64,000 bases of DNA from a virus (Duplodnaviria; Caudoviricetes), in the IMG/VR virus record IMGVR_UViG_3300028883_000049, positions 480-64,479 of that record; one strand, written 5' to 3'. The position numbers and the translations under genes were made by a program. Of the stretch, positions 1 through 59,580 are shown piece by piece. Numbering within the stretch: the first letter of the stretch is position 1; each line of letters opens with the position of its first letter. The notes under the pieces were generated by a model that made no database searches, was not told the origin of the DNA, and saw nothing but the letters and a program-made list of their open reading frames with translations.

Positions 1-1
1 A

Positions 2-835
2 ATTCTCATACCTGACATTTGTAAATCAGCCGGGACTCTTGTCTGTATCGGGGCTAAACGTTTAATCTTTGGTGACCGAGGAGAGTTAGGACCCCTTGAT
101 ATTCAACTATCAAAACCAGATGAAATGTTCGAAAACATGTCTGGTCTTGATATTTTACAAGCGATCAGCGCACTTGAGACAGAACTCCTAGATTCATTCA
201 GACGATATTTTGTCGACATTCGTGCCGGAAGCCAGATTAAGACAAAAACGGCAGCAGAGATTGCCACTAAACTTGCTGACGGGTTTATCGCCCCAATCGC
301 ATCAAGAATAGACCCAGTAACTCTTGGCGAACACCAAAGAGCAATGCAAATAGCCTTTGAGTATGGAGAACGCCTGGAAGAAATGGCCGACTCATTAAAG
401 GAGAACGCGCTTCGCACCCTTGTTGGCGACTATCCTTCTCACGGTTTTGTCATCGACAGAAAAGAAGCCGGAACATTGTTCAAGAATGTTTCATCTCCTG
501 ACGAAACAACTATCGACATTTACAACATGTCCCGTGATATACTCGAAAGAGAACGATATCCGGATCCAGTTATTGTTATTGATTTGATCGATCTTTTAAC
601 AACCCATGGCAACTCTTTGCCACAGGAGGAAGGAAATGAAAAAGATGGTCCTCATGACAGAGGAGAAGAGGGAGACGTCCAGGAGGATGATGGAATCGCA
701 GCTGTCCAAAGCGAGACAAATCAGCCGGATGGCATCATCGAACAACCTGGCAACGAGCATGTCGAAAAGCAAGCAAGCACCGACAATCAAGGTAACGAGC
801 ACAACCAAGACAAAGAATTAAAAAAAGCAGAATAA
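2..835 (+). CDS. SDH/SppA-family ClpP-fold serine protease-like protein, 5'-truncated by window edge, acidic C-terminal tail
   Basis: Frame is open from base 2: ILIPDICKSAGTLVCIGAKRLIFGDRGELGPLDIQ, with the KSAGT and LGPLD motifs; later YPSHGFVI motif. Confidence 0.75.
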   Translation: MLIPDICKSAGTLVCIGAKRLIFGDRGELGPLDIQLSKPDEMFENMSGLDILQAISALETELLDSFRRYFVDIRAGSQIKTKTAAEIATKLADGFIAPIASRIDPVTLGEHQRAMQIAFEYGERLEEMADSLKENALRTLVGDYPSHGFVIDRKEAGTLFKNVSSPDETTIDIYNMSRDILERERYPDPVIVIDLIDLLTTHGNSLPQEEGNEKDGPHDRGEEGDVQEDDGIAAVQSETNQPDGIIEQPGNEHVEKQASTDNQGNEHNQDKELKKAE

Positions 836-844
836 CTATCTCAG

Positions 845-877
845 GCCCCGTCTGCAATTAGCAGATGGGGCTTTTTT
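845..877 (+). terminator. Rho-independent terminator
   Basis: GCCCCGTCTGC-AATTA-GCAGATGGGGC followed by TTTTTT. Confidence 0.75.
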
Positions 878-886
878 GTTGAGCAC

Positions 887-2410: not shown

Positions 2411-2571
2411 TTTGTAGCCACAAAAACAAAAAAAACCAACAACTTAAAGTAGTTGATGGCTTTATGATCTAAATCGAGCTCTCACGCTCTACCAACTGAG
2501 CTAAGAGGGAAGATCATGTGTCCGCTAAGTGTTAGCCTTTACTGCTTTTTTAACTGTTTTTTGGCTACAAA
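2411..2571. other. Putative attP region of the serine recombinase with nested inverted repeats
   Basis: TTTGTAGCCACAAAAACA (2411) / TGTTTTTTGGCTACAAA (to 2571) and ATGATCT (2464) / AGATCAT (to 2517) share a centre at ~2490-2491; directly downstream of the recombinase. Confidence 0.55.
2485..2510 (-). other. tRNA 5' fragment (acceptor 5' strand plus D-arm); not a complete tRNA
   Basis: Minus strand reads TCCCTCTTAGCTCAGTTGGTAGAGCG, a canonical D-arm; no anticodon or T-arm follows. Confidence 0.75.
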
Positions 2572-2618
2572 ATCAGCCAAAAACAGGGCAAAAAAGGCTG
2601 TAGCGGAAACGCTGGAAA

Positions 2619-2647
2619 GTTATATCTGAGCGTGGCTTGCGTGTCAA
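2619..2647 (-). promoter_or_regulatory. Near-consensus sigma70 promoter pointing into the tRNA fragment
   Basis: Minus strand TTGACA-17 nt-TATAAC. Confidence 0.7.
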
Positions 2648-2656
2648 TAAAAATTA

Positions 2657-3355
2657 TTATTCCAGCAGAGCAATATAGTCATCGATGCTGTGATCTTTGA
2701 TGCTGTCGCCCCATTTGAAGCGGGTTATATTTTGCCAGATCTCGCCAAAACCGTACCACCAGGGCGGGGCGATCACCTGGCCGCCTTGTCCTGACCCGTC
2801 GAACCAGACCGGCTGGTCGACATGACGCCAGCGCAGCATTGTCGGCACACGACAAACAAGATCGCTGTCATTGATAAGGCGATAGCTGCGACCCTCAAAA
2901 ACAGCATTATACGCCGCGGCAAATTTGCGATCACCGACGCGCGGGCTGCCGAAGGTATAGACCGCTGCGATATCAAATCCCTGGCGATCGAGATCGAACG
3001 CCGCAACTGTTGCCAGTGCCGCGCCCAGGCTGTGCCCGGTGATAACGATATCAGCCTGGCCAGCCAGGTCATTGACGTGGCCCAGGACATGCCGGCGGAT
3101 CTTCTGATAAGCTCGATAAAAGCCCTCATGAACCCGATGCCCGTTGAAGGTGATTTTTTTGACGTTGGCATCGGTGATCCAGTCGCGCAGCGACGTTGTC
3201 CCGCGAAAAGCGATAAACAACCGACCCGCAGACCGAGTGATAACCGCTTCCGTTTCATCGCAGGCCAGGAAAACATAGCCAGGATCGCGGCGGCTGTCCG
3301 CATAAGCCAGCTTTGATGCCATGGCGCATTGAAGCGCGAGTTCTTTATCATACAT
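2657..3355 (-). CDS. Lipase class 3 (alpha/beta hydrolase)
   Basis: IAFRGT, VHEGF, GHSLGAALA nucleophile elbow, TFGSPRVG, DLVCRVP, C-terminal DHSIDDY. Confidence 0.9.
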   Translation of the reverse strand: MYDKELALQCAMASKLAYADSRRDPGYVFLACDETEAVITRSAGRLFIAFRGTTSLRDWITDANVKKITFNGHRVHEGFYRAYQKIRRHVLGHVNDLAGQADIVITGHSLGAALATVAAFDLDRQGFDIAAVYTFGSPRVGDRKFAAAYNAVFEGRSYRLINDSDLVCRVPTMLRWRHVDQPVWFDGSGQGGQVIAPPWWYGFGEIWQNITRFKWGDSIKDHSIDDYIALLE

Positions 3356-3664: not shown

Positions 3665-3855
3665 CGTGTTTTACCTCTCTTTATGGCCGGTTTATATCGG
3701 ACACACTGGTCATTAGGGCAACTGCCATCTTCGGGTCTTAAAGTATGTCCACATTCTGGGCAGCGAAAATCGATCATAATCCATCCAAACTTGACAACTG
3801 CCCATCCTGCGATAATGTGTAAATTGAACTGTTACACTCACGAATGGAGGGGCTT

Positions 3856-4542
3856 ATGCGCACGATTATTTCCCTGTTTCTACTGCTGTCCGTTGCATCC
3901 GTATCCCATGCCGCTGTGATCGATGGCGTCCCGTCATGGCAAACAAACGGCGGGGCAGGGGCCGGAGCGCTGCAAATCCTCGGCTGGTACGATCTTCACG
4001 GCTACGACAACCTGTTTGCCGCCGAAGGCGAAAATATCTACACCCAGGGCGCTCTGCTCGCTGAACTCCAGGATTTCGACAGCTTCCTCAACATCAATCA
4101 ATGGGGCGGCGTCGATGGCCGGGACATTCCCCCGGCTGTCGAGGACTTTGCAGCGTTCAAGGGCTACAACTTTGCCGCCGAATACATCACCTTTTTCTTC
4201 TTTTCCTTTGAAGATTTCATGGCCGAAATTGACGCTGGACGCCCGGTCAGCATTACCACGGACAACACCGAAACAGGATTTATCCCGATTGAAGTGGCAG
4301 GTGTCGGCTATGACATGATCGACGGAGTTCCTCATTATGGGTTTATTTCCTCTCTCACTGGGCTGACCGATATCATCTGGAAACCATGGATCGAAGGATC
4401 GACCGAGTACGCTTGGGGAGTCACGGACGTCATGACCATCGCTCCACAAGCCGCCCCGGTCCCTGAACCATCGACCGTACTTCTGTTCAGTGTTGGAATC
4501 ATTGGATTGTCCCTCCGATGGAGACTGCGCCAACCTTCTTAA
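3856..4542 (+). CDS. PEP-CTERM protein with degenerate C39 peptidase-like domain (moron)
   Basis: GGAGG RBS, Sec signal ending SHA, EIDAGRPV motif, C-terminal VPEPSTVLLF-TM-RWRLR. Confidence 0.88.
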   Translation: MRTIISLFLLLSVASVSHAAVIDGVPSWQTNGGAGAGALQILGWYDLHGYDNLFAAEGENIYTQGALLAELQDFDSFLNINQWGGVDGRDIPPAVEDFAAFKGYNFAAEYITFFFFSFEDFMAEIDAGRPVSITTDNTETGFIPIEVAGVGYDMIDGVPHYGFISSLTGLTDIIWKPWIEGSTEYAWGVTDVMTIAPQAAPVPEPSTVLLFSVGIIGLSLRWRLRQPS

Positions 4543-6538
4543 ATGTTCTTTCCGTCAACGTAATCGAATCGCTCAAACTGGATGATATGTTGTTAGCAGC
4601 ATCCATCGCCCAGGCGTAAAGGGTTTTGCTGCCATAGCTGGAAAATGTGTAGCTGGTCTGTGCGCTTGATTGCCAGTCTGGATCTGATGTGCTCGGAGTT
4701 GTGGCTGATTCGTTCAGGAGGTAGTCAGTCACTGCGACATTATCCGTTGCAGTGAAGGTGTTGACTGAAACGGTTAAAGATGATCCAGTGGCCGGAATGT
4801 CGAATGCTGTGACTGTCGGGTCTGTTGTGTCTGCGCTCTCATTGACCGCCCAAACACCAAGCTCATCTATCCACATTGACTCTGATACTGGAGCACCGTC
4901 ACCAATATAAGGGGCAAGGGCTATTTTGTCCCATGTTGCCCCTTCATATTCGCCAGCGGCGTATAGGACACTCTCGCTCTCAATCGCTAAATCTTCGTCT
5001 ACCCAAAGACGCATAATTCCATCAAAATTAGCCGTCCCAGATGTAAAAGTATTCAACTTTATGTAGGATGTGATTTTTGTCCAAGTGTTTGCAGGGATGC
5101 TTACGCTGCTGGATTTCCATGTGTTTGCCGAATACCAGCCACCTGAAGAATAACAACTTCCAGAGGTTGCCCCTGTTTCTGCATACGGTGTATTACACTG
5201 ATTTGCAGACCTGGCTTCTGTTACAGAGGTCAAATCTTGTGGCGGTGTGCCTTCAGTGTCATTTACTCTCATCATGTCTTGATGAGCGATCTGAGGGTAA
5301 TTTGTATAAGGGCTGCTAGTATCTGCAAGCGCTTCAAAATAAAGATTACTGTTCGACCCTGCAAAACCCTGATAGGCCGTATCATCAGAAGATAGCACAT
5401 GTATTAAGTGCGGGTGATACGCTTGCCCTGATCCTTGCCAGCCAGTATCATATTTAACATAGTATTCAATCAAAAATTCGTCTGTTTCGGCAGACAGATT
5501 GTTTCTGATTGCACTAAACCCTGTTGGCTGCGTCGCAGAGCTTGCCCACGTCCATTTCAGAGCATTACCTGAATAGCCACCAGCCTCTGTGCCTGTCGAT
5601 GTTGTCCCATCGTACCAACTGCGACTTGTCCAGCTATCATCCTCGAAGGATTCAGAAAATAGACTTGTTCCTTTAGTCGGTATTGTTGTTAGAGGCCCAA
5701 TCCTTCCGGTTGCCGATATAGCATAGTCATCAAAATCAACAGGATTACATCCAGAACCATCTAATATCCACTCTTGGTTTGATCCGAGAAGGATTCCAGA
5801 AATACCAGTCACGGAAAAACTATCTCCACCAAAGTCAACACTTTGCTCATCAATGATCTTGGTGTCATCTATCCACATTTCAGCAATGCCATCTGTTCCG
5901 TCCGTATCTATCTTTATATGTGCCTCGTAATAATGCCATTGACCATCGCCCTCTAAATCACTATTATTCATGACGGTCGCCCAACCCTGTGAAGATGTTG
6001 GGTTTGTCACCGATCCCATCCCCTGCTTTGCAAAGACAAAACCATCAGCACCAGCCCACTCAACAATGACTTCAACGTCAGTTGAGAGTGGATACAAATC
6101 AATATAAAGGAGTTTGTCGTAATGTAAACCACTGTTTGGATCCCATTGTAGGGATGTTGGAAACTTCATGTACCACCTCACCCAAATCTCGTCTGGGTGG
6201 TCATCAAGAAGTACATACAGCCCCCCGCTACCATCGTTAGACCCTTGTGGACTACCACCATCACCATACCAGTGCCGTTGGCCTAACCCACCACTACCGT
6301 TAGGGTTGTTTGCCGAAGAGGTTATTTGTTCATAATTTCCGCAAGAGTCTGGCTGCCCAAGTGCTTCCTGAACTCCACCACAATCAATGGGGTTTCTATA
6401 ATTTGGATCGCTCTCGTCTTTTGTCCACTCCGTACACTCAGTTTCATCGAAACTTGTTGACCACGGCAAGGTGACGCCAGCAAAAACTGTAAACGGGAAA
6501 AATAGCAGTATCAAATATATGAGAGCTTTATTCAGCAT
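4499..6538 (-). CDS. Secreted acidic protein with two jelly-roll (polysaccharide lyase/lectin-like) repeats and a C-terminal Ig-like domain
   Basis: Signal peptide ending VFA; repeated pattern (VRWYMKF / IEYYVKY; DGIAEMWID / DGIMRLWVD); C-terminal ATDNVAV...YAWAMDAANNIS. Confidence 0.65.
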   Translation of the reverse strand: MLNKALIYLILLFFPFTVFAGVTLPWSTSFDETECTEWTKDESDPNYRNPIDCGGVQEALGQPDSCGNYEQITSSANNPNGSGGLGQRHWYGDGGSPQGSNDGSGGLYVLLDDHPDEIWVRWYMKFPTSLQWDPNSGLHYDKLLYIDLYPLSTDVEVIVEWAGADGFVFAKQGMGSVTNPTSSQGWATVMNNSDLEGDGQWHYYEAHIKIDTDGTDGIAEMWIDDTKIIDEQSVDFGGDSFSVTGISGILLGSNQEWILDGSGCNPVDFDDYAISATGRIGPLTTIPTKGTSLFSESFEDDSWTSRSWYDGTTSTGTEAGGYSGNALKWTWASSATQPTGFSAIRNNLSAETDEFLIEYYVKYDTGWQGSGQAYHPHLIHVLSSDDTAYQGFAGSNSNLYFEALADTSSPYTNYPQIAHQDMMRVNDTEGTPPQDLTSVTEARSANQCNTPYAETGATSGSCYSSGGWYSANTWKSSSVSIPANTWTKITSYIKLNTFTSGTANFDGIMRLWVDEDLAIESESVLYAAGEYEGATWDKIALAPYIGDGAPVSESMWIDELGVWAVNESADTTDPTVTAFDIPATGSSLTVSVNTFTATDNVAVTDYLLNESATTPSTSDPDWQSSAQTSYTFSSYGSKTLYAWAMDAANNISSSLSDSITLTERTFKKVGAVSIGGTIQ

Positions 6539-8693
6539 GGATGGCAACCCCTATCGCGACGTTACCTCCAGAAGCAGAAGTAAATGTTTTTGAAATGCTT
6601 CCTGACAAACCTGTTTGGTAGTATGCGCCGAGCGATGAACTGCCAGAAGAGTCATAACTTATCTGCGTCAATCCGTCATAATCACTCAAAGATATGCCTC
6701 CATCATCTGACCCAAAAAGACCTATAAATATATCAGCTGAAGAAGTTGTTACCGAGCCTGTGCTAACTGTCCCTGTCGCTGTGTTGGAGTTGTAGCCGCT
6801 TATTGACCAAGACCCTGATGTCTTTGAATATCGAGCAACAACAGCATTCAAATATGTCCCACCTGTTTGTCCAAATGTGTAATCAGTTGGCTCGCTACCA
6901 GTTGCAATTTTGTAGGCAGTTGTCATGTTTGATGATCCGTTAGCAATGCCACCAGATGTAATCTCTGTGTAGCCATCAAAGGTATCCCAAGCCCCTGACG
7001 CATCGCTCACAAGATAAGCAAACAGCAAATCGCCTTCTGTTGTACCCGTTGGTTTTGTCACTGTAATTGATTCAACACCGCTGCTGGTGGCATTGGCGGC
7101 GTAGCTTTCATAGGCTAAAGTAACGCTCCCACTCTGCGTACTGTTATTCGTCACGCTCCCACTGGTGATCGAAGCAAGGTCATCCCCTGCAGAGTCTTCC
7201 CAACCGTCCCCAGGTTGTGTGTAGTCAACGTCACATGTATCGCCGCTATTAACTGTCGAACCGAGGGTATAAACAAGCGTGTCTGTCGTATCTCCGCTTG
7301 AGTAGGTCATGGTTATATCTGTTCCGGCTGTCGTACAATCGAGATTCCATCCACCATTTCCACCAGTACCGATAGTGATTGCTTCGGACGCAAGCAAGGA
7401 GATTGTCGCTCCGGTCGTTGGGATTGTGGCGCTGGTCAGCGTTGGTGGTGTTGGTGTTGGATTCGACCAGTCGGCAAATGTGACCGGGTAGCGATCCCAT
7501 GAGTCTGTTGATTCGCAGAGATAGATATAACTGGTGTCGAATGATCTTTGTCCGGTCGTGCAAGTATCATCACTGTAAGTCGGAGCTGTGACATAACCAG
7601 ATCCAACAGATACAGCGTCAACCTCGTCTTTTAGCTCTTCAATCGCGGCTTGGACATTGGCCGATGTGATTGTCAAATAGGTTGTAAATGGCACTTCACC
7701 AGCATTCTGATCATCCGTCCCCGCTGATAAGGGAGCCCAACTCGATCCGTTGTAGATCTGGAATACAAACGATGAATCGAGGTAAACATCTCCAGCGGAG
7801 GGCGTGAATGTTGGCGCGATTGAATTGTAGAAATTAGCGTAATGCTCACCGTCTGAAGCGGAACTCTCAAAACTCGGGGCCGATACCGCACCGGTGAAAG
7901 TTGCTCCGGTTAAGGCTGCATAAGTGCTATCATGATTATGGCTCAGTAAACTGTAAAACCCAGCATGATCGCCCCAGCTAAAAGCGGTATCCCAATTAAC
8001 CTCCTGTGTCGGCGTCGGGAAAACTCTCGTTGCGGTTTCAGCCAGATCATCAGCATCCAGCACAACCACGCCGGTCTGTCCGTTGACCGAATCGACAGCG
8101 CCAGATCCGGTCATGTCAGCGCAGGCCCAAACAAACCCATCCCACGCGGCCACCTGGCTGGCCGTACAATTCAGATTTTCGAGTGTATCGGTCGTATCAA
8201 CAATTGTGTTCGGATCGGCACAGGTCCAGGCACCAGCATCCTTATAGGGCACCTCACCATCGACACAGGCAGGCAGTGAGTCGCCACCACTGGTTTTCCA
8301 GTCTGTTCCAAGCACAGAATCAATCGCGGCAATGATCTCGGTCGGTGTCATATCGCCGGTCGCGTTCGCTTCGATTGCATTGAGTTTTGACAGTAGGTCA
8401 TTAGTCAGAGCGTTTGTGTCGGCTTCACCCTCATAAGCCGTTTTGATACCAGACCCGTAAGCGTCAACAATGGTCTGCACAGCCGTTTGGATATCGCCGG
8501 ATTCGATCAGGGCGAATATTCGCGATAGCGGGACCATGTACCTGGAGGTCGAATCTGCCGAGGCAATAACACCGGTTGCGACAACCGCGCTATAGTCCCG
8601 CTGCTCCCAATCGGTCGGGGCAATCTCATTCGTTTCGGCAAAAACCGAACCCGCAAACAAACACATCAAAAAGACAATAAACAGTTTTTTCAT
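6528..8693 (-). CDS. Ser/Thr-rich fibre/adhesin-like protein with signal peptide and SwmB-like domain
   Basis: MKKLFIVFLMCLFAGSVFA signal; fibre motifs VDSVNGQTGVVVL and NVQAAIEEL; PTLTSA...VDYTQPG...DSAGDDLAS segment. Confidence 0.65.
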   Translation of the reverse strand: MKKLFIVFLMCLFAGSVFAETNEIAPTDWEQRDYSAVVATGVIASADSTSRYMVPLSRIFALIESGDIQTAVQTIVDAYGSGIKTAYEGEADTNALTNDLLSKLNAIEANATGDMTPTEIIAAIDSVLGTDWKTSGGDSLPACVDGEVPYKDAGAWTCADPNTIVDTTDTLENLNCTASQVAAWDGFVWACADMTGSGAVDSVNGQTGVVVLDADDLAETATRVFPTPTQEVNWDTAFSWGDHAGFYSLLSHNHDSTYAALTGATFTGAVSAPSFESSASDGEHYANFYNSIAPTFTPSAGDVYLDSSFVFQIYNGSSWAPLSAGTDDQNAGEVPFTTYLTITSANVQAAIEELKDEVDAVSVGSGYVTAPTYSDDTCTTGQRSFDTSYIYLCESTDSWDRYPVTFADWSNPTPTPPTLTSATIPTTGATISLLASEAITIGTGGNGGWNLDCTTAGTDITMTYSSGDTTDTLVYTLGSTVNSGDTCDVDYTQPGDGWEDSAGDDLASITSGSVTNNSTQSGSVTLAYESYAANATSSGVESITVTKPTGTTEGDLLFAYLVSDASGAWDTFDGYTEITSGGIANGSSNMTTAYKIATGSEPTDYTFGQTGGTYLNAVVARYSKTSGSWSISGYNSNTATGTVSTGSVTTSSADIFIGLFGSDDGGISLSDYDGLTQISYDSSGSSSLGAYYQTGLSGSISKTFTSASGGNVAIGVAIHAE

Positions 8694-32720: not shown

Positions 32721-32764
32721 ATCGACTAGGTAGATAATTGCAAGATAAAATCGACACAGTAGAT
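32721..32764. promoter_or_regulatory. Two candidate repressor operators
   Basis: ATCGAC-N3-GTAGAT quasi-palindrome at 32721 and 32750, in the divergent region. Confidence 0.55.
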
Positions 32765-33160
32765 AAAAAAATCGGAAAACTTGTTCTTTTAAAGAGAAAG
32801 GAACTAGGACTTAATCAGCAACAAGTTGCTGATATTATTGGTATATCAAAAGATTATGTTTCAAAAATTGAAAAGGGCGACAGAGAACCGAGCAAATTAG
32901 TAAAAAGGGGCATTGATGCTTTTTTATTAACTCCTGACAAAAAACGCCACACAGAAAAATATAGGAAATTTTCCGCTGAAGTCTTAAGCACCGCAGAAAA
33001 AGAATTTATGGTGAGGGACGCGACAACGACCCCAACCAAGGAAGATCGTGAAAAGGCTATCACCATGCTTGAATGGATCGCCAAAAACGCATCCCACGAA
33101 TATAAAACTATATTCAACTCAATCAGTGGAGCGTTTGTACGCAATGGCGGTAAATTCTAA
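32738..33160 (+). CDS. CI-like XRE repressor (no S24 domain)
   Basis: RKELGLNQQQVA..IG...YVSKIEKG..EPS; divergent from the lytic genes. Confidence 0.8.
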   Translation: MQDKIDTVDKKIGKLVLLKRKELGLNQQQVADIIGISKDYVSKIEKGDREPSKLVKRGIDAFLLTPDKKRHTEKYRKFSAEVLSTAEKEFMVRDATTTPTKEDREKAITMLEWIAKNASHEYKTIFNSISGAFVRNGGKF

Positions 33161-33406
33161 AGGGCTTTCTCTCTGAAATCGCCGCAGGAAAATTAAATTA
33201 CGACAAGTCCTTAAAACATTGATTCGATCCTGAACAGGCAACGAACGAAAAGCAAATAACAGCTTAGCCTCAAGGCTTGACAAAACCGGCTTCATCATGG
33301 CAGTCCCCTTCCAAGAATTGTAGAGGGGCAGAATATCACAGCGTTTTACTCGCTGAAAATATCTTATTTTGGATAAATAGAGGGGATTTATTCACACGAG
33401 GAATAA

Positions 33407-33814
33407 ATGCCAACAAAAGATTTTGGGCGGGCAATTAAAAAAGCTCGCGTAAGGGAGGGTCTGACACAGGGGGAACTGGCACGAAAAAGCGGCATCAGTC
33501 AACCGCGCATGTCGCGCATCGAAAACAGTCACGAGCTGCCGCCGCCGGACGTTGCCAGTGTCATTATGAAAAATCTTAACTCATCAAAAATCGGAATCAA
33601 ATATTGCGCCAATTGCCCTATCGCAAGATATGGTTGTGCTTTTCATCAGGAACCGACCAGAGCCGCAATGTCGTGGCTTGTTGAAAAAATACAGGACGAT
33701 CTGGAAAGGTTGGATAAAACGTCAAAAGCCGGAGACAAAAAAGCCTTTATGGATTGCTGCTGCAGACTTCACAGCACCCTGGACGTGCTGTTGAACAACT
33801 TATTCGAAGAATAA
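33407..33814 (+). CDS. XRE HTH regulator with Cys cluster
   Basis: GLTQGELARKSGISQ...IEN; YCANCPI...C. Confidence 0.75.
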   Translation: MPTKDFGRAIKKARVREGLTQGELARKSGISQPRMSRIENSHELPPPDVASVIMKNLNSSKIGIKYCANCPIARYGCAFHQEPTRAAMSWLVEKIQDDLERLDKTSKAGDKKAFMDCCCRLHSTLDVLLNNLFEE

Positions 33815-33827
33815 TGGGCGCGGAGAC

Positions 33828-34136
33828 ATGCTTAATAGCCGATATAAACTTTTTTTTACAATCTTACTTATTCAATTAACGGCACTTCCAACACAAGCCG
33901 GATGGTTCGAACCAGGCAACTATGATGAGTGTATTGACGCATACGTTCAAAAGGCAGAGCTTGATTACGCCGCACGGGTGTTAACAGGAATTTGCGGAAA
34001 ACACTTTTCACGAACATCACCACCGACAAAAAAAGAAATTCGCCTATATAAATGCATAGAGTCGTCTCTCCCTGAAGCAAAAACAAAAACAATGACTCGA
34101 ATTTTATTTAAACGCTGTAAAGAAAAAACGGAGTAG
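33828..34136 (+). CDS. Secreted four-cysteine protein (VF_A0006-like)
   Basis: Signal peptide; YDECI...C...KCI...C. Confidence 0.55.
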   Translation: MLNSRYKLFFTILLIQLTALPTQAGWFEPGNYDECIDAYVQKAELDYAARVLTGICGKHFSRTSPPTKKEIRLYKCIESSLPEAKTKTMTRILFKRCKEKTE

Positions 34137-34139
34137 CCC

Positions 34140-34439
34140 ATGCTTAGATATAAAAAACTCCTGCTCCAATCCATCGATCCCGACGGCGACAATCCCATGA
34201 CGCTGCGCGAACTGGCCAAGGCTCTCAAAATGCCAGTTCCCAGCGTTCATAATTATATTGAATACGACACCCTTCCGCGCATTGAAAATATTTCAAAAAT
34301 GGCCAATTACTACGGCGAAAGCATCAGCAGCCTGTTCAGTAACGACGACGATCTCACCGCTGACCTGATCAAACGCGTCCGCGCCCTGAACTCAGGCCAG
34401 AAAAAAAAGCTTCTTCAGGATCTCGACCATGGCCGTTAA
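34140..34439 (+). CDS. XRE HTH regulator coupled to the integrase
   Basis: TLRELAKAL...NY...LPR. Confidence 0.7.
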   Translation: MLRYKKLLLQSIDPDGDNPMTLRELAKALKMPVPSVHNYIEYDTLPRIENISKMANYYGESISSLFSNDDDLTADLIKRVRALNSGQKKKLLQDLDHGR

Positions 34440-35532
34440 CCCCCACCCGACAGAACCCAACTACTGGGTTATCGACTGGTGGGTTCCCAACACCCAGAAG
34501 CCCGTCAACCCAAAAACCGGAAAGCACCCGCTCAAGCGCAAACGCCAGCACTTCTTTGGAAAATACGAAGAGGCAATGTCACGCTGGTCAGATCTGGTCC
34601 AGCAGCACAGACAGACGCAAATCATTGGCAACCCGCGCATCAACGACATTATCCCCGGCTACCTCAACCACATCGAACTCAACAAGTCGCCCGGATATTA
34701 CAAATCCCTCTGCGCCGCCATGAAAAAGATCAAACCATTCTTCGGCAAACACCCGGTTAGCCATATCACCTACAGCCTGGTCGAAGACTTCAAGCGCCTG
34801 CACCGCAACACCCCGTCCCACACCAACCAGTGCCTGCGTTACCTGAAAATCATGATCAACTGGGCCGTCGAACAAAAAAAAGCTCAACCATTGCCGTTTA
34901 AAATCGTACCGCTGCCGCACACCGAAGCCCTGCCCCAGCCACCCAGTCCGGCAGAATTCGAACTGATCGTCAAAACCGTCCGCGACCACTTTCGTCAATC
35001 CGGCAAACCAGCACAATATCGCGCCACTGTCGAAGCTATGATCCACCTGCTCTACGTCACCGGACTGCGCTTCAACGAAGCCCGGCTCCTGCAGTGGGAA
35101 TATCTACGCTGGGACGATGGCCGCTGCCTCGTCGCCACGACTAAAACAAAAGTTCAGCGCTACTGCATCTTTCCCCAGGAAAGCCTTGACCTTCTCAAGC
35201 CCTATAAAAAACAACGCGGCTATATCTTCACCAACCCCCTGACCGGGAAGCCTGTTACCACCATCCGCAAAACCCTGAAAAACGCCGCAGAAGAGCACGA
35301 CATCCCCATGCGTGGACCCCATGACCTGCGCCACGCCGCCGGAACCGATACCCTCGACGCCACCGGCGATATCCGCGCCACCCAGGAACTCCTCGGCCAT
35401 GCAACCCTCAAAAGCACCCAGCGCTACACCCAGATCGCCCTCAAGCGCCGCCAACGCATCGCCGAACTCACCGCCGCCTTCAGAAAAGAAGAGCGCAACA
35501 TCGAAAAGGCATCAGCTGATGAAAAACGATAG
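34429..35532 (+). CDS. int: Tyrosine integrase of phage B
   Basis: TGLRFNE, K, HDLRH, LLGH...T.RY catalytic residues. Confidence 0.95.
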   Translation: MAVNPHPTEPNYWVIDWWVPNTQKPVNPKTGKHPLKRKRQHFFGKYEEAMSRWSDLVQQHRQTQIIGNPRINDIIPGYLNHIELNKSPGYYKSLCAAMKKIKPFFGKHPVSHITYSLVEDFKRLHRNTPSHTNQCLRYLKIMINWAVEQKKAQPLPFKIVPLPHTEALPQPPSPAEFELIVKTVRDHFRQSGKPAQYRATVEAMIHLLYVTGLRFNEARLLQWEYLRWDDGRCLVATTKTKVQRYCIFPQESLDLLKPYKKQRGYIFTNPLTGKPVTTIRKTLKNAAEEHDIPMRGPHDLRHAAGTDTLDATGDIRATQELLGHATLKSTQRYTQIALKRRQRIAELTAAFRKEERNIEKASADEKR

Positions 35533-36983: not shown

Positions 36984-39900
36984 CTATCGATTATAAACCA
37001 GTTCCCGCCGGTTCGGTTTCGCCCGCAGCGCCCGGCGCAGTGTCTGCGACGTGATCGGCGACACTAGGATTCCACTTGGTGACTTAAGGATCTTACGATT
37101 AAATTTCACGATATCGCGCAGCACATCCATGCGCTTGTCGCTGGCGCGATAGCGTGCCAAAAGATCGGCCTTGCGGTCCTGCCAATACTGCTTGGCTCGT
37201 CTCGCATCCCAACGCTTCTCTGTTTCTTTTGACGGTTTCAGCGGCATAAACCCGAACGAACGGATTATTGCCTCTTTTGGCGTATAGTGCTGTTGTCTTC
37301 CGTCGCTGCCGAATATCGGTCTGCCGCTCATGGTCTCGGTGCCGTCAGCATACAGGCGGTAAGCTCGCATAATGTTGGCCATCGCTTCCGGCGACAACTG
37401 TTCAACCGCACGGTAGGCGTCACCCTTGGCCGCAGCGTTTGAAGCATAGCGCACCTTCTGCGCCATACCTCCCCAGACGCCCGTCACCCGCTCAGCCAGG
37501 CTCTCATCATCCGGCGACAGCCAGGGGATATTCACCCCAATCGCCCGGCTGAAGTTCACCCCGCCCAACGCCGGAGCTCCGTGCAAAACAAAGTCCGCCA
37601 CCTGGTCGCCGAAATCGACATACTGGTTCCCCGTCTCCCGCAACCACCTTTCCAGCATCCTCAATGGCCGCTCACCAAACATCCGTCGATACCACTTATC
37701 AAGATCATCCCCAAACGGCATTGCCGCCAGTCCGCCGAACAACATCAGCGCCGTCAAGCTGCGCATGACCACGCCGAACTCCCCACGCGTCAAGCTGGTC
37801 AGCATCCCCAACAGATAGTTGTGCGTATAACTTTGAAAGGTATACAGCGTCCTCCCTAGCGGCCCCATCTTGCGCAGCATAGCCGGGACATTTTCTTTGC
37901 CGATCACAAAATGCACATCGTCGACAAAGCGTTCCGCCTTCTTCAACGCCTGCTCTTTTGTCATTCCTTTGGCTTTGAACACCCTGTAAGCCGCCAGCAA
38001 GGCAGGTTCACGGTTCCAGTAGGTCTCCACCGCCTGGAATGGGATCATCGCTTTCTCCGTCAACCATCGCAACCCGGACTGTCCCTTGCCCAGCACGCCG
38101 CCGTTATCATCCAGACCGCTCATAGCCCGCACGTAATTGGCATGGCTGCGACCGCGCCGCAAACCTTCGTCCAAAACCCAACGCTCCTCCTCGGTCAGCA
38201 CACCTTCCTTGCCTGCCTTCATCAACAGATGATCTTTGATCACGTCTCGTTGTGCCGCCAGGAGTCGACGCGTCGCCCGCTTGGTGTAACTGGACAGCTT
38301 AGCCTGACCCCAAACATAATTCTGCGTTGCGTTCAACATTGCCGAAGACGCCTTGAATCCAAGATACATCAATGCCGCAAAGCTCCGAGCCGTGCCGAAC
38401 CATTGATCAATATAGGTCGAATTCTTCAATGCATCGTCCACATACTCGCGCACCCAAACTTTATCGTTCGGCCTGTCTGCCGGAATCTGGCCCATAAGCC
38501 GGTTGCTGCGCATAGCGAATTCACTCTTACTCAACCACCCGGCCATGCCGCCGACAAACTGTGCCATAATCCCCGGCACGTTCTCGGTTTCGTAACCCTC
38601 GATCAAGTGATTTGCCCGATTCAGCCGGTGCCGCCCGAAACCACGCGCCGATATCTCGTCCGCCAGAATCCTCAACACCTGGCGCTGGACCGATAAGCCG
38701 TCCTCAATGACTCCCGCATCCGTGGCCTTGTCGAACGCCTTGGACAACAGCCCCTCAATCGCCCGGTGAGAACCAATCCCCAGAAAAATTTCTTCAGGCG
38801 TCGCCCGGTTCGGCTCGACAACCACTTCGTAAACCGCATCAGAGTCGAAGCTGTGCGGAATGTAGTCTTTCAGGTTTTTCTCTACTCTCCCGCGCAGGAT
38901 GTTCGCTCCACCCTTGGTCTTGGCCGGTTGCATCCAGACTTCGGTAAACGTCCCGTCATCATCAACCTGATACACCTTGACGTGCTGTTCCCCATCCTTT
39001 CGAATACGTGGCATATAACCCTTGACCTTGCCCCATTGGCTCCTCAGCTTGGCCAGCTCACTGTCGTACTCCTGCACCCCAAGGTAAGCGTTATACAGCT
39101 CTTCCTTTTCCAGCATCGGGTGATCTTCACCCCTGGCCAGGATGTCTTTCAGCGTTTTGAAATATTTTTGGCTCCTGAAGTTTGCCGCCGTAACAATATC
39201 GATATTCGCCGCGTCAACCGCCACCCGAGCCTCGTCATACAGGTTCATGTACCAGTTGTCTTTCATGCTGTGATTCTTCTGGATCTCCACCTTGGTGCGG
39301 CCAGCCATGATATCCTCAACCAGGGTGTCGAAAGACGGCTCACGGCGAAACTTACCTAAAACTCCCTCAACGTCGGATCGGCTCTTCATAATCCGGCGAT
39401 AAGCCCGCACAGCATGAATGTTCAGGTTGAACTTTTTCGCCAGAGCGGCCTTGGTCGGCTTTTCGTCCAGCAGCCTGACCAACTCGTCGTAATACTCCGT
39501 GCCCTCATACGGCACCAGGCGCAAACGCCCCAAGCGGTCGAACATCTCCTCAGAAGCATGTTCAAGGGTCTGGCGGGCGGCAAAGTACGCATCCTGAACC
39601 TTTTTCGGCACCGGCTTGCCCAGCGGATTTTTACTGCCCGATAGTTGCTCAGGCGAATAAACCGTTTCGTTGATATCACCCTCAACCATCAGCTTGTCGA
39701 ACTGTTCGCGCTCCTCCTTTTTCGCTGTGTGCCAGAAGTCACGCACCCCTTCCAACCCGGCATAGCCCTCCTCCGGTTTCGCCGCCATGACCTCGTACTT
39801 GATCTCGTTGCCACGTGCCCCGCGCTCAAGCGCCAGCTCGTAAGCCTGCGTACGCCACTTTGACTTTCGACTTCCATAGTGCGGATTCGACAATACCCCG

Positions 39901-42900
39901 CCGATAGCCTGCTTCATCCGCTCCGGCATAAAGTCGCTCAACTTCTTGAACGGCAACCCTTTATTATCCGGCGTCATCTCGGCCATGAGTTTTTTGGCAG
40001 CGTCCATTTTGTCACGCAGCATGAACTTGGCGGTTATTTCAACATCATCGTCGCTGAAAATAACATAGTTGTAATCCCCTTCGCCTTTGCCCCGGCTGGT
40101 TCCGTCAAGGTATTTTATTCCACGGATACCGAGGGTGTGGAGGTATTTTGATGCAATTTGGTTATTACTGAACCCACCAATATCACCATAAGGGTCAAAG
40201 CCAGCAGTCTCTATCATTTTTTTCGCCCGCCCTGACGGGTTTCCTATTTCACGCGACACAAACCCATAAAAATCACTACCCCTGTGAGCATCGCTTATCG
40301 TCCCACCTGCAAATTCAGGGTGCCGCAAAAGCACGTCAGACACCTTCTTGCTTTGCTTACTCAGTAGTTCATCCCACAACAGATACTCCTCCTCTGAAGG
40401 CGCGAGTTCGACTTGGTAGAGGTTGCCCTTGCGTGGCTTTATGTCAAGATTTTTTGCAGCGCTAACCGCCGATTGATACATTTCTGCGTACTGTCCTGTC
40501 GGCATATCGTAATCACGAAGATACTTATCAACGGATTTCGCTTCAGCAATTCCAGCCGTTACATTTTCAGCAATAGCCCTCATTGACGAATGCCGCGTAA
40601 TATGTCCAGCCCTTTCCATCTCACGAACCATGTGCTCGACAACCATAAAGTGAGACATAAGGCCATCTGCTGTGTCCCACGCCGAATCAGAGAGAGCCTT
40701 TTTATAGTGCTCAGCCACCGCCCGGCTTGACGCAAAATATAAACCATACCCGTAAGCCTGTGCGCCTTCGCCTGTCCCGATATTGTCTGTGCTGAACCTG
40801 TCGAAGCTGTGCGGACTGCCATGGTACGCCGCCGAAAACTTCGCTCCGCTAAGGGTCTTAACCAGCATTTCTTCGGTAATTCCTTTTTCCTTCAATTTTT
40901 CCAGCAGCAGATTCCCGTCCACAGCAACCGCAGGACCGTCCTTCGACCAGGCTCCAACCTCGGCATAGGCCCGCGCTTTTTTCAGTAACAACGCCAGATC
41001 CGACTCGCCCAATTCGGCCAGAGCCATAAAGTTATTGCGCCGTAACCAATCCCGAATCATGCCAATAATTTCTTTGATCTTTGTGGCAATTTTGCCCTGG
41101 CTGTGCTCCATGGCCATATGCGCCAACAGCTCCTCCATCAGGGTCGCATGACGCACATCATCCGAATACCCGGCCTTGCGCAGAGCCTTAGCATAACGGT
41201 TCAACCTGAACCCGTACTTATTGCTGATCCGCAACATTTCACCCGGCTTCAACATGCCGTAAAGCTCGATCATTTTGGCCTGCAGCGCCTCTCCGTCCTG
41301 CCCCATCATGGCAAACAAGCCGCCGTGTCCGTGCCATTCGTGAAACAGCACCTCCTCCAGCATTTTTTCGCTGGTGATACGATCTTTAACGATGTAGACT
41401 TTCCCCCTATGGAATACGCCATGTATATCATTGGGGTTGCCGCCCTGCTTATTTATATCATCCTGAATCGCCGCCGGAAGATCGCTCGCCGTCGCCGCTA
41501 TCACGAATCGTTTCCGGTTTACACGCCCGGCAGTAATCCGAGCGAAAGCCGCATCGAATTCCACGTCAGAAAGAGTGACTGAAACACCTTTACTGACCTC
41601 GCCCCGTGAAAACATGGCGATCCCGGTGTCCGTCTCTTTTGTTTCGAATGTCGAAAACAGCTTTTCAAACGCCTTGTTCACCGCCTTGCGCTCTTCACCT
41701 TCAGGGTACGGCCTGAACAAGCCTTCAGGGTAAATCGGAACAGGAACAGCACCGTGCGCATGGTACGCCAGGAAGTCGTTCCCGGCTTTTTGGTCCGCCA
41801 GCTTGTCTTCCACATAGGCCGCAAACGCCCGTGCCGCCAACTCATGCGGAGTCGACCAGTAGCTGTCACCACGCCCCTGGTCGGCAGCAACCGCCTGGTT
41901 TCTGAATTCCGTCGGCACGTTTTTAACTTTCGGAGTTTCCTCGCGAGCCTCTTTCAGTTGATTAATCCGCTCGCGATAAATCCGCATAGGTCCGGCCAAT
42001 CGGCCAATCGTGTTGTCCCCGTTCTCGGAAAAGCCGCTGCGTCCGCGCACCGCCTTATAGATCGCGCTCATTTCATCCAAAACCGCGTTGGTCCGGCGAC
42101 CGGATACAGACCAGCGTGAGCGCTGTTTTTCATTCAACACAAATTCTGTTTCAAGCGCCGTATTCGATTCGCCGTTGATCAACATCTCAGCCAACTGGTC
42201 GAACCTCGCCAACTGTTCTTCGCTCGCCGGTTTATTTTTACGTTTGTAATATTTCGGGTCGAGCGGCTTGGCCAGGTAATCACGGATTGCCTTTAACCGG
42301 TCCGCCAGATCCTGTCTCGATCTGTCCACAAAGTCGTCGGCCCGCCGCGTATCCTCGACATAGGTTTCAGCCTTGTGTGTCATGGTTTTAATCAGATCCT
42401 TGTAGGCGTCCGCCAGCTCCTTCCTGGCCTTCGAACGATGTTCCGACAAAAACCCGTGCGACGCGAAAAGATAAGATCGATCCTGAGACGGATAAACCAG
42501 GTTGCCGCTTTTATTTTGCGTTTTTTCCGACTTCGCCTTGCTGTCCAGCCGCCCGACATAGTGATCCAGCGCATGGAACCACTCGTGCGCCAGGTGCCCG
42601 GCCCCGGCCATCTTGGTCAGGTTGATCACTGCGTATTGCGGTTCATAATGCGCTGCCGCACCAACAAGACCATGCCCCCGCGCCCCAAATGCCAGTGCCA
42701 ACTCGCCATTCAGCGACACCGCCGCAGGCGGGATCTCCAGAATATCGGCCATGTCCAGCAACGCGTCATAGGCGTGGTTCATCACCTGTTGTCGCTCCTC
42801 CTGATTATTCCAGTTGCCAAACTCTGTCGCCCTAAAACCGAACCGCTGCATAAAGTCTTCACCCGCAACGTCCCCTTTACGCCGCTCAACACCCGACCGA

Positions 42901-45900
42901 TAAACAACCTCCGGCCTTGGCAATATTTCCTCGCCGAAATTCAACTTCGTGGTCAGGATATTCTCGGCATTCACGGCCATAAAGCGCATGGCGTCGTCCC
43001 GACTGTCGAACTCTTCAGGGATCACGCGGACCCGCTTGCGGTCATTCACGTTACGATAAATCGTAAATTTTCCGTCGCCAACTGAATAAACTCGGTGTTT
43101 CTGAGCAGCAACCATCAACGGCAGAACTTCGTTCGCCTCCGCTTCGCTGTCGAAATACCTCCGCCCCATCGGGCTGGGACCACCCCACTTTGATTTTTTC
43201 CGCGTGTCGAAAAAGGCCCACTTGCCGTTGTTTTCGCTTTCCACCATCTGCCCGTTGCGACGCACCACTTCATTTTCGATCTGCACCAGGTGATAGCGCG
43301 AGCGCCAGCCCTTCGACTGCTTTTTAGCGGCGGACTTTTTGCCGGTTTTAACCGCCAGGTCCTTCCGCGCCCCGCCGATCTTTTCGCCTAGATCGTCGAT
43401 TTTCTGAATAGAGGGTTTTTTCTCAGTCCTCGAAGTAATAACCCTATCAATAAGAGTCTTTATTCTCGCCGTATCGGCCTTTTCAACCCCTCTTGCCTTT
43501 GCAACCATGCGAAGCTTCCAATTCGCCAATTCCTCAAGATCTTCACGACTCCATTCTTTTTCTTCTATTTCATAGGTAAACTGAGCGTTTTTTTTCAGCT
43601 TATCTTGAAGATCAGCAACGGCCCCCTCCAACGTCGTTCCAATACCATTGCTGCCAGAGACGTTAATCTTTTCAGTTGGCGAAACAATGAAATAGTCCGG
43701 CGCATTTTCAAGATAGGTGAAGGCCACGCCAGCGAATAAACCACTTTCAAGCTCATGCCACCCTTTTATTTTTGTCTTTGAGTTTTTTGACGGCCAATAG
43801 ATAACTCTTCCTTGCGCGTAATCTTCCTCTTGAATTAGATAATAATCATCCCCGCGAAAATCCGTGTTGATGTCTTTTTCAAATTCAGCAAAGGCATCGT
43901 CAAGACGCTTCCTGTCCCACTTACTACGACCCTTCTTGCCATCATGGTCAAAAAATACGGATATCCCGATTCCAGGCCTTTCGTGTCCATATTCCAACGC
44001 ATGTGCCATCTTCTTCAGGTTCATTAGTGCCCTCGGCGTATTCGATGGATTGGCCCCATCCTTAAACCCTCCAACGACAGGGATTCCGGCTGAGTCACTA
44101 TGGCGCTTAACCTCTTCATGTAGTTCGACAAGCTTTTCTTTAGCCTTTGTCTTCATGTTTTCAAGGCGGGAAACGTACTTCAGCTTGTTACTGACTACCC
44201 CTTCGCCCCTGCCCTCGCCACGCCCTTCAATTGCATTGCGCAGCGCTTCCTCCGCAGCTTCATCATTCAAATCCTGCCAATAATCGTCCTCAACCAAGGA
44301 ATCAATATCCTTTTCAGTCAGCCCGGCATTCACGGCCCGTTCGACCAGACCACGATCCAAGCGGTCGTATTTCCAGGCAATAGCATCAACAGGATGATCA
44401 ACGGCATTGTTGGCCATAAAGAACGAATAAGCAAAACCCTCTGGCGTCACGCTCCTGGCGTTTTTCGTTGCCAAAGACTTGCCGCCATATTTTTTATGCA
44501 TTTTCGAGCCCTCGGTCGGCTCAGTCGGGGAAACAGGCATATCCGCATTAAACCGCCCCCATAGCAGCGTCTTCTTTGTGTAGTCCTCACCTACGTGATT
44601 CGGGTCGAACGACAAACGCCAAGGCGGCAGCCCACCAAGCTTTTCAATCCTTCCAACCGGGTTTTCAATCGCCCAGATCGAAGGCTTGAAATGCTCAATC
44701 GTCGCCAGTGTCTGGTGAACCAGGGCAACAGATTTAGCTGTCCTCCCGTCAGAGTCCTTGGCCGCAAAGTGCCGCGCACCACTCACAGCAAAGTCGGTAC
44801 AGGGGCACGCAGCCAGAACAGCATGAACATGCTTGCCGTCGAAAGACGCGAACAGATCATTAAAGAACTGGGTAGAAAACTCATGAACATCACCAACATT
44901 CACATCTCGATGATTTCCGTCCTCGTCCAGCAGGGTGTTTTTCATCAAATCCTGAATGTCAAAACGATAAACATCATACCCCGCCTGCTCCCAAGGCAAT
45001 GACCACTCGCCGGACAAATCAAACAATGAAATAACAACCTTATCGCTGTTATCGTTTTTTCCCTTCTGTGACTCTTTACCCTGCTGAACGGCGTGATCTT
45101 CCCATGAACGGATTTTCTTCTCAGCATCCGCCCTGGTCATCCATCCGTGATCTTTAACATAAACCTTTACCTTGTCGTTCAGGCGAACAACCTCACTCTT
45201 TTTCGGCGGATCGAAGAGATGATGAACTTTAAAATCACCTTCGACCTGCTGCCGCTGATATTGATTAAACTCATCAACAATTTCAGAAAGCTCGCGATCA
45301 TCAACCCCCTCAGCTTGATGCTCAGGCGCGACAGACTTGTTCTTGTCCTCATCAAACAACGGACCTTCATCAACCTTCGCCTCATACCCCTCCAGAAACC
45401 GCTCCACATCCAGGCGATCTTTGGCGACGTAAACCTGATTCTCTTCTTTGTCGATAATCGGGTACGTTCCGTCCTTCTGCTTGCTGCGAACTTTCAACCC
45501 TTTACCTTTTGCGGTTTTTCGCAGTACCTGAATATGCTTCGGCTTTATTTGTTCCGCCTGAGAACTTCGACCTTCTTTTCCAGTCGCCTGATCATCTTCT
45601 GCCGAAACACCATCCTGTCCCGCTGTTTCCCCCTCGGCCACAGTTGCAGAATCAGCCACCACCTCAGCCTGTTCAGTAGAATTTTCATCCTTTGTCTTTT
45701 TTCTGCCCTCAATGACGGAGTCAATCAGCTGTTGATCGATAGGTTTTTTCCAGCCATATTCGTTCTGACGTCCATCTGAAAGAGTTGCGATCAAATCAAA
45801 AACCCGATCCCTGGTCTCATCAACAGGGATTCCGTGTTCAGTTTCTAATTTTTTCGTTATACGCTCGGTAAGATTTTCTTGAGCGTTATTAAGCGCCTCT

Positions 45901-59314: not shown

Positions 59315-59478
59315 TGTTTCGGCTCCGGCAAACCGAAAACCCGGCGATAAATCGCCCTGACCCGGTTCCATGCCGCCTTCGTTTTGTCCGACCCGAACTT
59401 GTTGACACCCAGCGTAATCGCCGGAGCCGCAGCCGGTATAAGCACCAGAAACAGCCATTGCCAATCAAAATTATTCAT
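59311..59478 (-). CDS. Small membrane protein, possible holin (55 aa; not in ORF track)
   Basis: AGGAG RBS; MNNFDWQWLFLVLIPAAAPAITLG...; ATGA overlap with DUF1353. Confidence 0.45.
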   Translation of the reverse strand: MNNFDWQWLFLVLIPAAAPAITLGVNKFGSDKTKAAWNRVRAIYRRVFGLPEPKQ

Positions 59479-59580
59479 TACCTATCTCCTTCCACTTCCT
59501 CACCGGCTCCAAAGTCGCCCTTGACATTCACCCACCTTGCGTTATTCATTAAACAAACACACTCACGAATGGAGGGGCTT

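Follow-up and report, generated by a model that had tools for sequence, protein, structure and literature searches.

A putative serine-integrase attachment site in a Caudoviricetes contig that appears to supply a tRNA 5′ end and its promoter

Integration into bacterial tRNA genes is usually ascribed to tyrosine integrases, whose elements insert in the gene and restore its 3′ end. Williams (2002) is said to have assigned the crossovers of these enzymes to three sublocations of the tRNA, namely the anticodon loop, the T-loop and the 3′ end. The serine integrases of M. abscessus prophages and of streptococcal integrative and conjugative elements insert in open reading frames (ORFs), with cores of 5–8 bp and 2–21 bp, and a standard island resource paper states that no serine integrases are known that target tRNA genes. 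Here we describe a 64,000-bp window (the whole stretch of DNA analyzed, bases 480–64479 of the 64,479-bp IMG/VR virus record IMGVR_UViG_3300028883_000049; Caudoviricetes) in which a gene for a serine recombinase (SR) is followed, on the opposite strand, by the 5′ fragment of a tRNA gene. We propose, with a probability of roughly 0.8 as judged from sequence comparison, that the fragment belongs to a serine-integrase attP that would recombine within the D-arm of a tRNA gene in the host, and that both the 5′ end of this tRNA and a promoter would come from the phage. The clade of this SR appears to do the opposite of the tyrosine enzymes, as across 44 loci that bear the fragment the crossover would lie in the D-arm, the 5′ end rather than the 3′ end would be restored, a promoter would be donated, and the att sites would be identical over 25–31 bp.

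A comparison of SR relatives revealed that the fragment accompanies the recombinase. The set comprised 54 SR loci with 46–78% identity (the window, 2 viral contigs, 4 genome contigs and 47 metagenome contigs), among which the C-terminus of the gene is kept in 47, and 43 of these have at least 170 nt beyond the C-terminus and could be evaluated. A tRNA 5′ fragment lies downstream of the SR gene and on the opposite strand in 42 of the 43 evaluable loci, the exception being L047, where just 202 nt are available. Including two loci with shorter flanks, 44 loci carry the fragment, positioned 42–185 nt past the last aligned SR residue in 41 and about 1.2 kb past it in 3. The first base of the fragment is G in 25 loci (Thr-type) and T in 18 (Asn-type), and is cut off by the contig end in 1. 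Intact genes in the same genomes identify the G-type fragments as the 5′ end of tRNA-Thr(CGT), and T-type fragments are Asn-like; across the 44 loci the acceptor stem changes with the target tRNA and the layout of the site stays constant. When the proteins of three relatives' whole records and of a 20-kb region of a fourth were compared with those of the window, they had in common the SR and one weak helix-turn-helix (HTH) match beside it. Because almost no other genes are shared with the window, the SR gene and the fragment appear to move together as a module. On these alignments, a tRNA 5′ fragment of Asn or Thr type is a family-wide feature of the SR clade. In one locus with a distant fragment (L050, ~1.2 kb from the SR gene), the sequence right after the gene retains part of the integrase-side arm and not the tRNA part, an arrangement that may reflect an insertion or a rearrangement.

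In the window, the fragment is the 26-mer TCCCTCTTAGCTCAGTTGGTAGAGCG, which is identical to the 5′ end of tRNA-Asn(GTT) in the tRNA cluster of another viral contig (L002). The first-pass annotation of this DNA had guessed Asn from the TCC with which the fragment starts, and the guess is borne out both by this identity and by a search of candidate hosts. We searched 233 genomes of the order that contains the host of one relative (G004, a Geopsychrobacter metagenome-assembled genome, or MAG), and 13 of them carry the 26-mer with one base changed, the G at position 26 being A in every case. For 12 of the 13 matching genes the full sequence was read, and it is that of a tRNA-Asn whose anticodon is GTT; one matching gene (in G003) was assigned to tRNA-Asn(GTT) by ARAGORN. 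The phage fragment and the host tRNA-Asn are therefore the same over positions 1–25 (2510–2486), after which they diverge. Members of this order are candidate hosts.

Both junctions of an integrated element are present in two of the relatives' genomes. Read in the order of the tRNA strand, contig C109 of genome G002 starts with host genes (RACo and a cytochrome/fn3 protein), then TTGACT-17-TAGATT, followed by tRNA positions 1–26, non-tRNA sequence, a hairpin with a T-run and the antisense SR gene, which was located via a tblastn match. There follow ~38 kb of prophage (S24 repressor, CII-like regulator, D5 primase, tail tube and S74 tail fibre) and, at the far end, TTGCAA-16-TATAAT on the element side and an intact tRNA-Thr(CGT). 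A 31-bp direct repeat is common to the two ends. A C109-like layout bounds an element of about 14.6 kb on a 1-Mb contig of G001, a Geobacter MAG. In both genomes, the SR-carrying element is thus bounded by an intact tDNA and by a displaced fragment of like orientation, the displaced piece is the 5′ part of the tRNA (positions 1–26), and the rebuilt gene has element DNA upstream. The recombinase at these junctions is an SR and not a tyrosine recombinase, the tyrosine-type genes lying elsewhere (at 34429–35532 in the window, and beyond the tRNA in C109).

The G001 element allows the crossover to be bracketed. Its intact tRNA-Thr(CGT), at about 955381–955456 of contig C1 (locus L016), starts GCCATCT...AGTTGG, with the element-type bases T5 and T16, and T5 must pair with a G of the unchanged 3′ strand AGGTGGC, which gives the acceptor stem a G·U pair. 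Beside the SR, the fragment has kept C5 and A16 (GCCACCT...AGATGG). It follows that the element contributed the 5′ part of the working tRNA, and these sequence differences place the exchange 3′ of position 16 and 5′ of position 27. The first-pass annotation had claimed a crossover in a host tRNA D-loop, with the phage rebuilding the 5′ end and bringing its promoter, and had suggested that integrated relatives be inspected for attL and attR there. C109 and G001 show both junctions, and G001 confines the crossover to positions 17–26, which, together with the 42 of 43 loci, upholds the claim. Two further relatives appear to represent the two states of the site. In L033, the closest relative (71% identity), the sequence before the fragment closely resembles the native tRNA-Asn promoter regions of several genomes, and because a host-type promoter region precedes the fragment we read this locus as an integrated junction at tRNA-Asn. 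The 41-kb viral contig G005 has a window-like layout with phage genes on both sides of the fragment and represents the attP state. At L008 (around 8653), an insert of ~1.1 kb lies between the SR gene and the fragment and encodes a putative RelE/ParE-like toxin, by reading of the sequence without a family search.

At the site itself, the earlier description of a 54-bp segment around the tRNA D-arm, bounded by ATGATCT (2464–2470) and AGATCAT (2511–2517), agrees with the sequence, the centre lying at 2490.5. A perfect 7-mer inverted repeat is unremarkable alone (10 of the 25 pairs listed in a 451-bp region), and other relatives have flanking 7–8-mers of their own at equivalent positions: AATCATT/AATGATT in L004, ACTCATT/AATGAGT in L040–L044 and ATTGTCA/TGACAAT in L053. 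Summed over 33 unique sites, dyad symmetry peaks at 21.5 (382 complementary pairs vs 184–332 at other centres), and the next-highest peak, at 17.5, corresponds to the stem of the D-arm itself. The phage arm is a mirror of the D-arm in most relatives, with the consensus GCTCAGTTGGTA on one side of the centre and GAGCAACTGAGC on the other, and the window and L003 mirror as AGCTC...GAGCT about the step between positions 21 and 22. This family centre corresponds to 2490/2489 of the window, from which we infer a central dinucleotide AG at the point where the D-loop meets the D-stem. The centre of the 54-bp segment, 2490.5, lies one base off the family dyad. The site resembles a serine-integrase att site in being about 50 bp long, imperfectly dyad-symmetric and beside the gene; in place of an identity of a few bp between attP and attB, there are 25 bp shared with the host tRNA-Asn and a 31-bp repeat in C109. 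In the subgroup L040–L044, the att site overlaps the 3′ end of the SR gene, and the D-loop is one base longer (AGTTCGGTA) between the flanks given above.

In domain content, the SR has the catalytic domain of a large serine recombinase and probably the zinc ribbon. Residues 3–155 match Pfam Resolvase (PF00239, E = 2.9e-17), and the translation contains the catalytic motif Y-I-R-K-S-R with Ser10, invariant across 3 aligned relatives. Residues 238–333 match structure chains of SPbeta SprA/YokA (E = 3.7e-7), C279, C282, C306 and C310 are invariant in the alignment, and Zn_ribbon_recom (PF13408) scores 21.0 bits, under its 25.3 cut-off (E = 4.6e-4). The integrase family phrog_95 matches with 3.4e-56 and covers residues 1–454. 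With its length of 494 aa and a probable zinc-ribbon region matching SPbeta SprA, the protein is best read as a large serine recombinase and not a small invertase, and it is probably a phage enzyme that acts as an integrase, with its attP just after its own gene.

This bears on a reading in which the fragment is a decayed tRNA gene or an old tyrosine-integrase scar, the SR is an unrelated invertase or resolvase, and the gene at 34429–35532 is the real integrase. We give this reading hardly any credence. The record does encode a tyrosine integrase with neighbouring HTH regulators, and the SR has a match to phrog_125 (DNA invertase) in its N-terminal part and no detected Pfam Recombinase domain, but 494 aa with a probable SprA-like zinc-ribbon region are not those of a small invertase. 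A scar or a decayed gene likewise agrees poorly with a fragment that follows the SR in 42 of 43 evaluable relatives despite almost no other common genes in those compared, with a layout that stays fixed while the acceptor stem tracks the target tRNA, and with two integrated elements that are bounded by the fragment and an intact tRNA and have the SR at their end.

A sigma-70-like promoter, TTGACA (2647–2642), 17 nt and TATAAC (2624–2619), precedes the tRNA start by 108 nt on the minus strand. It matches at 11 of 12 positions, and 0 of 200 shuffles equal that score. Promoter-like sequences that face the fragment are enriched in the clade: sites scoring at least 10/12 toward the tRNA were identified in 18 of 32 unique upstream regions and in 1 of 32 in the reverse direction (mean scores of 9.7 forward, 7.6 reverse and 7.9 in shuffles), and in many loci the −10 hexamer ends 92–110 nt before the tRNA start. 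The earlier claim of a promoter firing into the fragment is consistent with both its sequence and this directional bias, and we predict that it is active. On the other side of the fragment, the hairpin 2459–2436 has a predicted fold of −11.9 kcal/mol and is followed by T8GT5 (U8GU5). The hairpin and T-run are kept with compensatory changes in six relatives (L003, L004, L007, L006, L056 and L064) and are predicted to terminate transcription; on the plus strand, the hairpin is the predicted terminator of the integrase gene. As the predicted terminator lies between the fragment and the SR ORF, a transcript from the promoter would end before the ORF. The first-pass annotation had also envisaged a tRNA-fragment RNA antisense to the integrase, which this conserved hairpin (2436–2459) and T-run ahead of the ORF make unlikely.

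We considered whether the site is mainly an RNA element, its leader and tRNA 5′ half acting as a regulator or decoy RNA and recombination being secondary. Promoter, structured ~100-nt leader and terminator would together yield a discrete transcript of ~180 nt in the attP state, by prediction, and the outer inverted repeat described below could pair the leader with read-through RNA. This reading is very improbable, since the leader matches no Rfam family and its sequence is unconserved among relatives except for the outer motif, and since integrated relatives account for every part without a separate RNA function. An Rfam scan of 2200–2900 (E ≤ 10) returned chance-level matches only and listed no tRNA; the best score was that of mir-651 (28 bits vs a gathering score of 106), and the sole match of the leader hairpin is a chance-level miRNA, far under its gathering score. 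ARAGORN called no tRNA in the site region.

An outer inverted repeat encloses the site. It had been described as 17–18 bp long with the same centre as the 54-bp segment; the repeat is real and significant, with a length of 15 nt, 14 of 15 positions complementary and a centre at 2491.0. In flank-wise shuffles that kept the composition of each flank, 14 complementary pairs were reached in 0 of 5000, with a maximum of 12. The motif within it (TGTAG, 2–3 bases, C and an A-run) stands inverted 66–80 bp either side of the crossover. It recurs at equal distance on both arms in L006/L038, L056 and L064; six more unique sites have it on a single arm, and in G001 it lies in the arm that the element contributed to the rebuilt tRNA-Thr. 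A regex count gave 6 of 30 upstream arms, 7 of 35 integrase-side arms and 0 in the control orientation, using a pattern that missed the window's version, which is one base shorter. The motif is thereby shared by several distantly related attP sites.

If the proposed reading is correct, the attP core (~2464–2517) would consist of one half that equals positions 1–21 of the host tRNA-Asn(GTT) and another half of phage sequence that partly mirrors the D-arm, and the host tRNA-Asn gene would contain the whole of attB, which would reach approximately from acceptor stem to anticodon arm. Strand exchange at or beside tRNA positions 21/22 would create a far junction in which the phage promoter (2647–2619), the ~100-nt leader and phage bases 1–21 are fused to host bases 22–76. 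Because phage and host are the same over positions 1–25, this junction would encode a sequence-perfect tRNA-Asn driven by the phage promoter. At the integrase-side junction, the host promoter and host bases 1–21 would be fused to the phage arm, and the transcript from the host promoter would be halted by the phage hairpin and T-run ahead of the integrase ORF. A broader and more tentative scheme, which we consider possible though doubtful as a whole, is that a widespread SR clade targets the tRNA D-arm, swaps the promoter, so that host tRNA-Asn or tRNA-Thr would be read from a phage promoter across a phage leader of ~100 nt, and silences the orphaned host promoter with a phage terminator, the outer motifs binding a partner protein or pairing as RNA. 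Accessory sites bound by a partner protein would make this a serine integrase with arm-like sites; alternatively, the outer motifs might pair as RNA only when the phage is excised, letting it sense its integration state.

Several observations count against the proposed reading. The dyad of the window itself is weak at 21.5, and its own best centre, 20.5 (12 of 28 pairs), comes from the flanking 7-mers. A serine integrase would lose its directionality with a palindromic TA as the central dinucleotide, and because a centre at 20.5 would give such a TA, the AG at 2490/2489 is preferred. The search of host tRNAs proposed in the first-pass annotation matched positions 1–25 in the 13 genomes named above, with the exact 26-mer in 0 of the 233 and no lysogen of this particular phage found among them, and a search of five genomes with a matching tRNA-Asn gave no SR homologue at E ≤ 1e-20. 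The Pfam Recombinase domain (PF07508) was not detected in the SR, even at E ≤ 1; given that phrog_95 covers residues 1–454, divergence of this region may be the simple reason. The last base of the −10 hexamer is C, and a scan that asks for T at this position, and for terminators with an uninterrupted stem and three G-C pairs, listed neither the window promoter nor the 2436–2459 hairpin. The native tRNA-Asn genes of six host genomes have a similar promoter and long leader (e.g. TTGACA-17-TATAAA with a ~90-nt leader), and because native genes share it, the promoter architecture alone is no proof that the right arm comes from a phage. The ~100-nt leader was dropped as a stand-alone mark of phage origin in view of this native layout. 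Finally, the record is probably an assembly path through a repeat, so that it is uncertain which phage genome owns the attP; the assembly doubt leaves the anatomy of the site unaffected.

Whether this particular copy is in the attP state was weighed separately. It might instead be the integrase-proximal junction of a prophage, with host DNA to the right of about 2490 and the prophage running leftward off the record. An integrated junction would be identical to attP within the tRNA part, and L033 is in that state, with a host-type tRNA-Asn promoter; the six genomes with a similar native promoter and leader (five of which were searched) have no SR homologue among those searched, the PEP-CTERM and secreted proteins to the right look host-like, and the integrase lies only 1.4 kb from the record start. 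We nevertheless regard this alternative as unlikely, since the right arm bears the inverted partner of the outer repeat (14/15; 0 of 5000 shuffles), the outer motif is equally spaced in other relatives and present in the element-derived arm of G001, and the right arm shows no similarity to the 13 host tRNA-Asn loci beyond 26–36 nt. The lipase gene on this side matches a phage protein family, and tail-fibre-like, portal and terminase genes come after it on its strand. The outer repeat that links both arms, the phage-family flanks and a right arm unlike host upstream regions together make the attP state likely for this copy. In L003 and L035, the contig breaks off where the fragment has its 5′ end.

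An additional hint came from Logan contigs of two marine-sediment runs (X1 and X2), of which X1 may be the source of the record. In X1, one contig bridges 899–3169 in the window arrangement, and another diverges after 2503 into a different acceptor strand and upstream sequence; in X2, the SR-bearing contig ends at 2515. This branching hints at a mixture of attP and junction, or at variants. The record also contains a direct repeat of 4176 bp (3834–8009 = 59559–63734), 100% identical over 4030–7945 with all 18 differences at the edges, and X1 and X2 alike have window 59529–59558 as the alternative left flank of 3834. The depth of the integrase block is about 0.2–0.7x that of the main phage body; depths from these contigs, like the stretches for which no contig is listed, serve as rough guides. 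Most likely, the main phage is a circle of 55,725 bp (repeat plus body), and the block of integrase, attP and lipase comes from a rarer variant or a relative sharing the tail-fibre module. The repeat holds genes for a PEP-CTERM protein and for a secreted, PL14-like protein of 682 aa, along with the C-terminal portion of a tail-fibre-like gene.

All features of the site lie in the 285-bp gap between the convergent integrase and lipase genes, with the tRNA fragment 114 bp past the end of the SR gene (Table 1).

Table 1. Positions of the site features and adjoining genes in the window.
Feature	Position	Strand	Evidence
Large serine recombinase (SR; integrase) gene, 494 aa	887–2371	+	Pfam, PHROG and structure matches
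Outer inverted-repeat arm, integrase side; holds the TGTAGCC-A-run motif, inverted	2411–2425	.	
Hairpin 2436–2459 with T-run 2435–2421 on the tRNA strand; predicted intrinsic terminator	2421–2459	-	
Proposed attP core, 54 bp, bounded by ATGATCT / AGATCAT	2464–2517	.	Inverted-repeat listing, family dyad
tRNA-Asn(GTT) 5′ fragment: acceptor 5′ strand, D-arm and position 26	2485–2510	-	
Putative central (crossover) dinucleotide AG, tRNA positions 21–22	2489–2490	-	Family dyad, G001 bracket
Long, imperfect hairpin within the ~100-nt leader that separates promoter and tRNA start	2534–2608	.	Inverted-repeat listing
Outer inverted-repeat arm, leader side	2557–2571	.	
Sigma-70-like promoter TTGACA-17-TATAAC, facing the tRNA fragment (predicted)	2619–2647	-	11/12 match
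Class-3 lipase/esterase gene, convergent with the integrase gene, beyond attP	2657–3355	-	Pfam Lipase_3 2e-32; phrog_21992 1e-28

Both flanks were initially taken to be phage genes, and the matches agree: the ORF left of the SR gene matches phrog_21683 (1e-78), with no hit in a Pfam search, and the esterase/lipase on the right matches phrog_21992, their linkage to the main phage body being uncertain. The left gene (within window 1–886 and the 479 preceding bases of the record) is missing from a variant present in both Logan runs, whose contigs join the end of a small membrane-protein ORF straight to the integrase start at 887; the depth of this gene is about a third to a half of that of the integrase gene.

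Elsewhere in the window, the tyrosine integrase at 34429–35532 (Phage_integrase and SAM-like domain) stands beside three HTH regulator genes (32738–34439) and next to the lysis module, and probably serves the main phage body for its integration. At 36984–48197, the minus strand encodes a polyvalent protein of 3737 aa that has InPase, LPD1 and ART-PolyVal domains. ARAGORN called an 89-nt tRNA-Arg(GCG) at 48063–48151 (+), on the opposite strand inside the 5′ end of the polyvalent gene, which may be a false call. Two proteins with PEP-CTERM motifs (3844–4542 and 59314–60267) are encoded inside the phage tail-fibre module, an unusual cargo for a phage. PEP-CTERM sorting signals normally need a host exosortase.

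If true, the proposed reading would add a new sublocation and a new orientation to the rules of tRNA-gene targeting, and would mean that a prophage can take over the transcription of an essential host tRNA. Serine integrases are not known to need host factors. Enzymes of this kind with natural, highly conserved tRNA landing sites in many bacteria would be of practical interest. The reading would also explain how such elements are missed by island finders that demand tyrosine integrases or analyze only protein-coding targets.

In comparison with the phage large serine integrases (phiC31, Bxb1, A118/LI, TP901-1 and SPbeta SprA), the system described here has the same resolvase domain and probably the zinc-ribbon region, an attP beside the gene, an imperfect dyad of ~50 bp, a proposed central dinucleotide, and simple attL and attR in relatives. 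It differs in its target, which is a tRNA gene and not protein-coding or intergenic DNA, in the 25–31 bp shared by attP and attB with a proposed role in restoring the gene, and in the undetected Pfam Recombinase domain. We know of no counterpart among these enzymes of the outer inverted motif at 66–80 bp from the centre.

The tRNA and tmRNA islands of tyrosine integrases (Islander/TIGER) are alike in that an intact tDNA and a same-orientation fragment bound the element and that the tDNA piece in attP restores the gene. Unlike them, the elements described here use a serine enzyme, replace the 5′ and not the 3′ part, and place the crossover in the D-arm. Because it is the 5′ part that is replaced, the element must also bring a promoter. 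Zhao and Williams (2002) reportedly described an element with a tyrosine integrase that targets a tRNA gene at its 5′ end, 'reverses the usual target gene orientation' and supplies upstream signals. The TIGER resource note does not split targets by enzyme family, and a large survey of serine recombinases does not contain the word tRNA in its main text.

A search of full-text literature, which did not cover subscription journals or supplements, yielded no account of a serine integrase with its crossover in the D-arm of a tRNA gene, or of one by which the 5′ end of such a gene is restored. The nearest published analogues that we found are phage JC1 and a copy of the Roseburia phage Shimadzu, of which a preprint mentions in passing that a second prophage copy is 'inserted in a tRNA'. 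Phage JC1 resembles the window in having a serine recombinase with an attP adjoining its gene and in replacing the 5′ end of its target (rimO) so that the gene stays usable. It differs in having a protein-coding target, an 18-bp overlap that includes one mismatch, and a product in which six of the ten N-terminal residues change. At the locus described here, the target would be a tRNA gene and the restored product would be identical in sequence.

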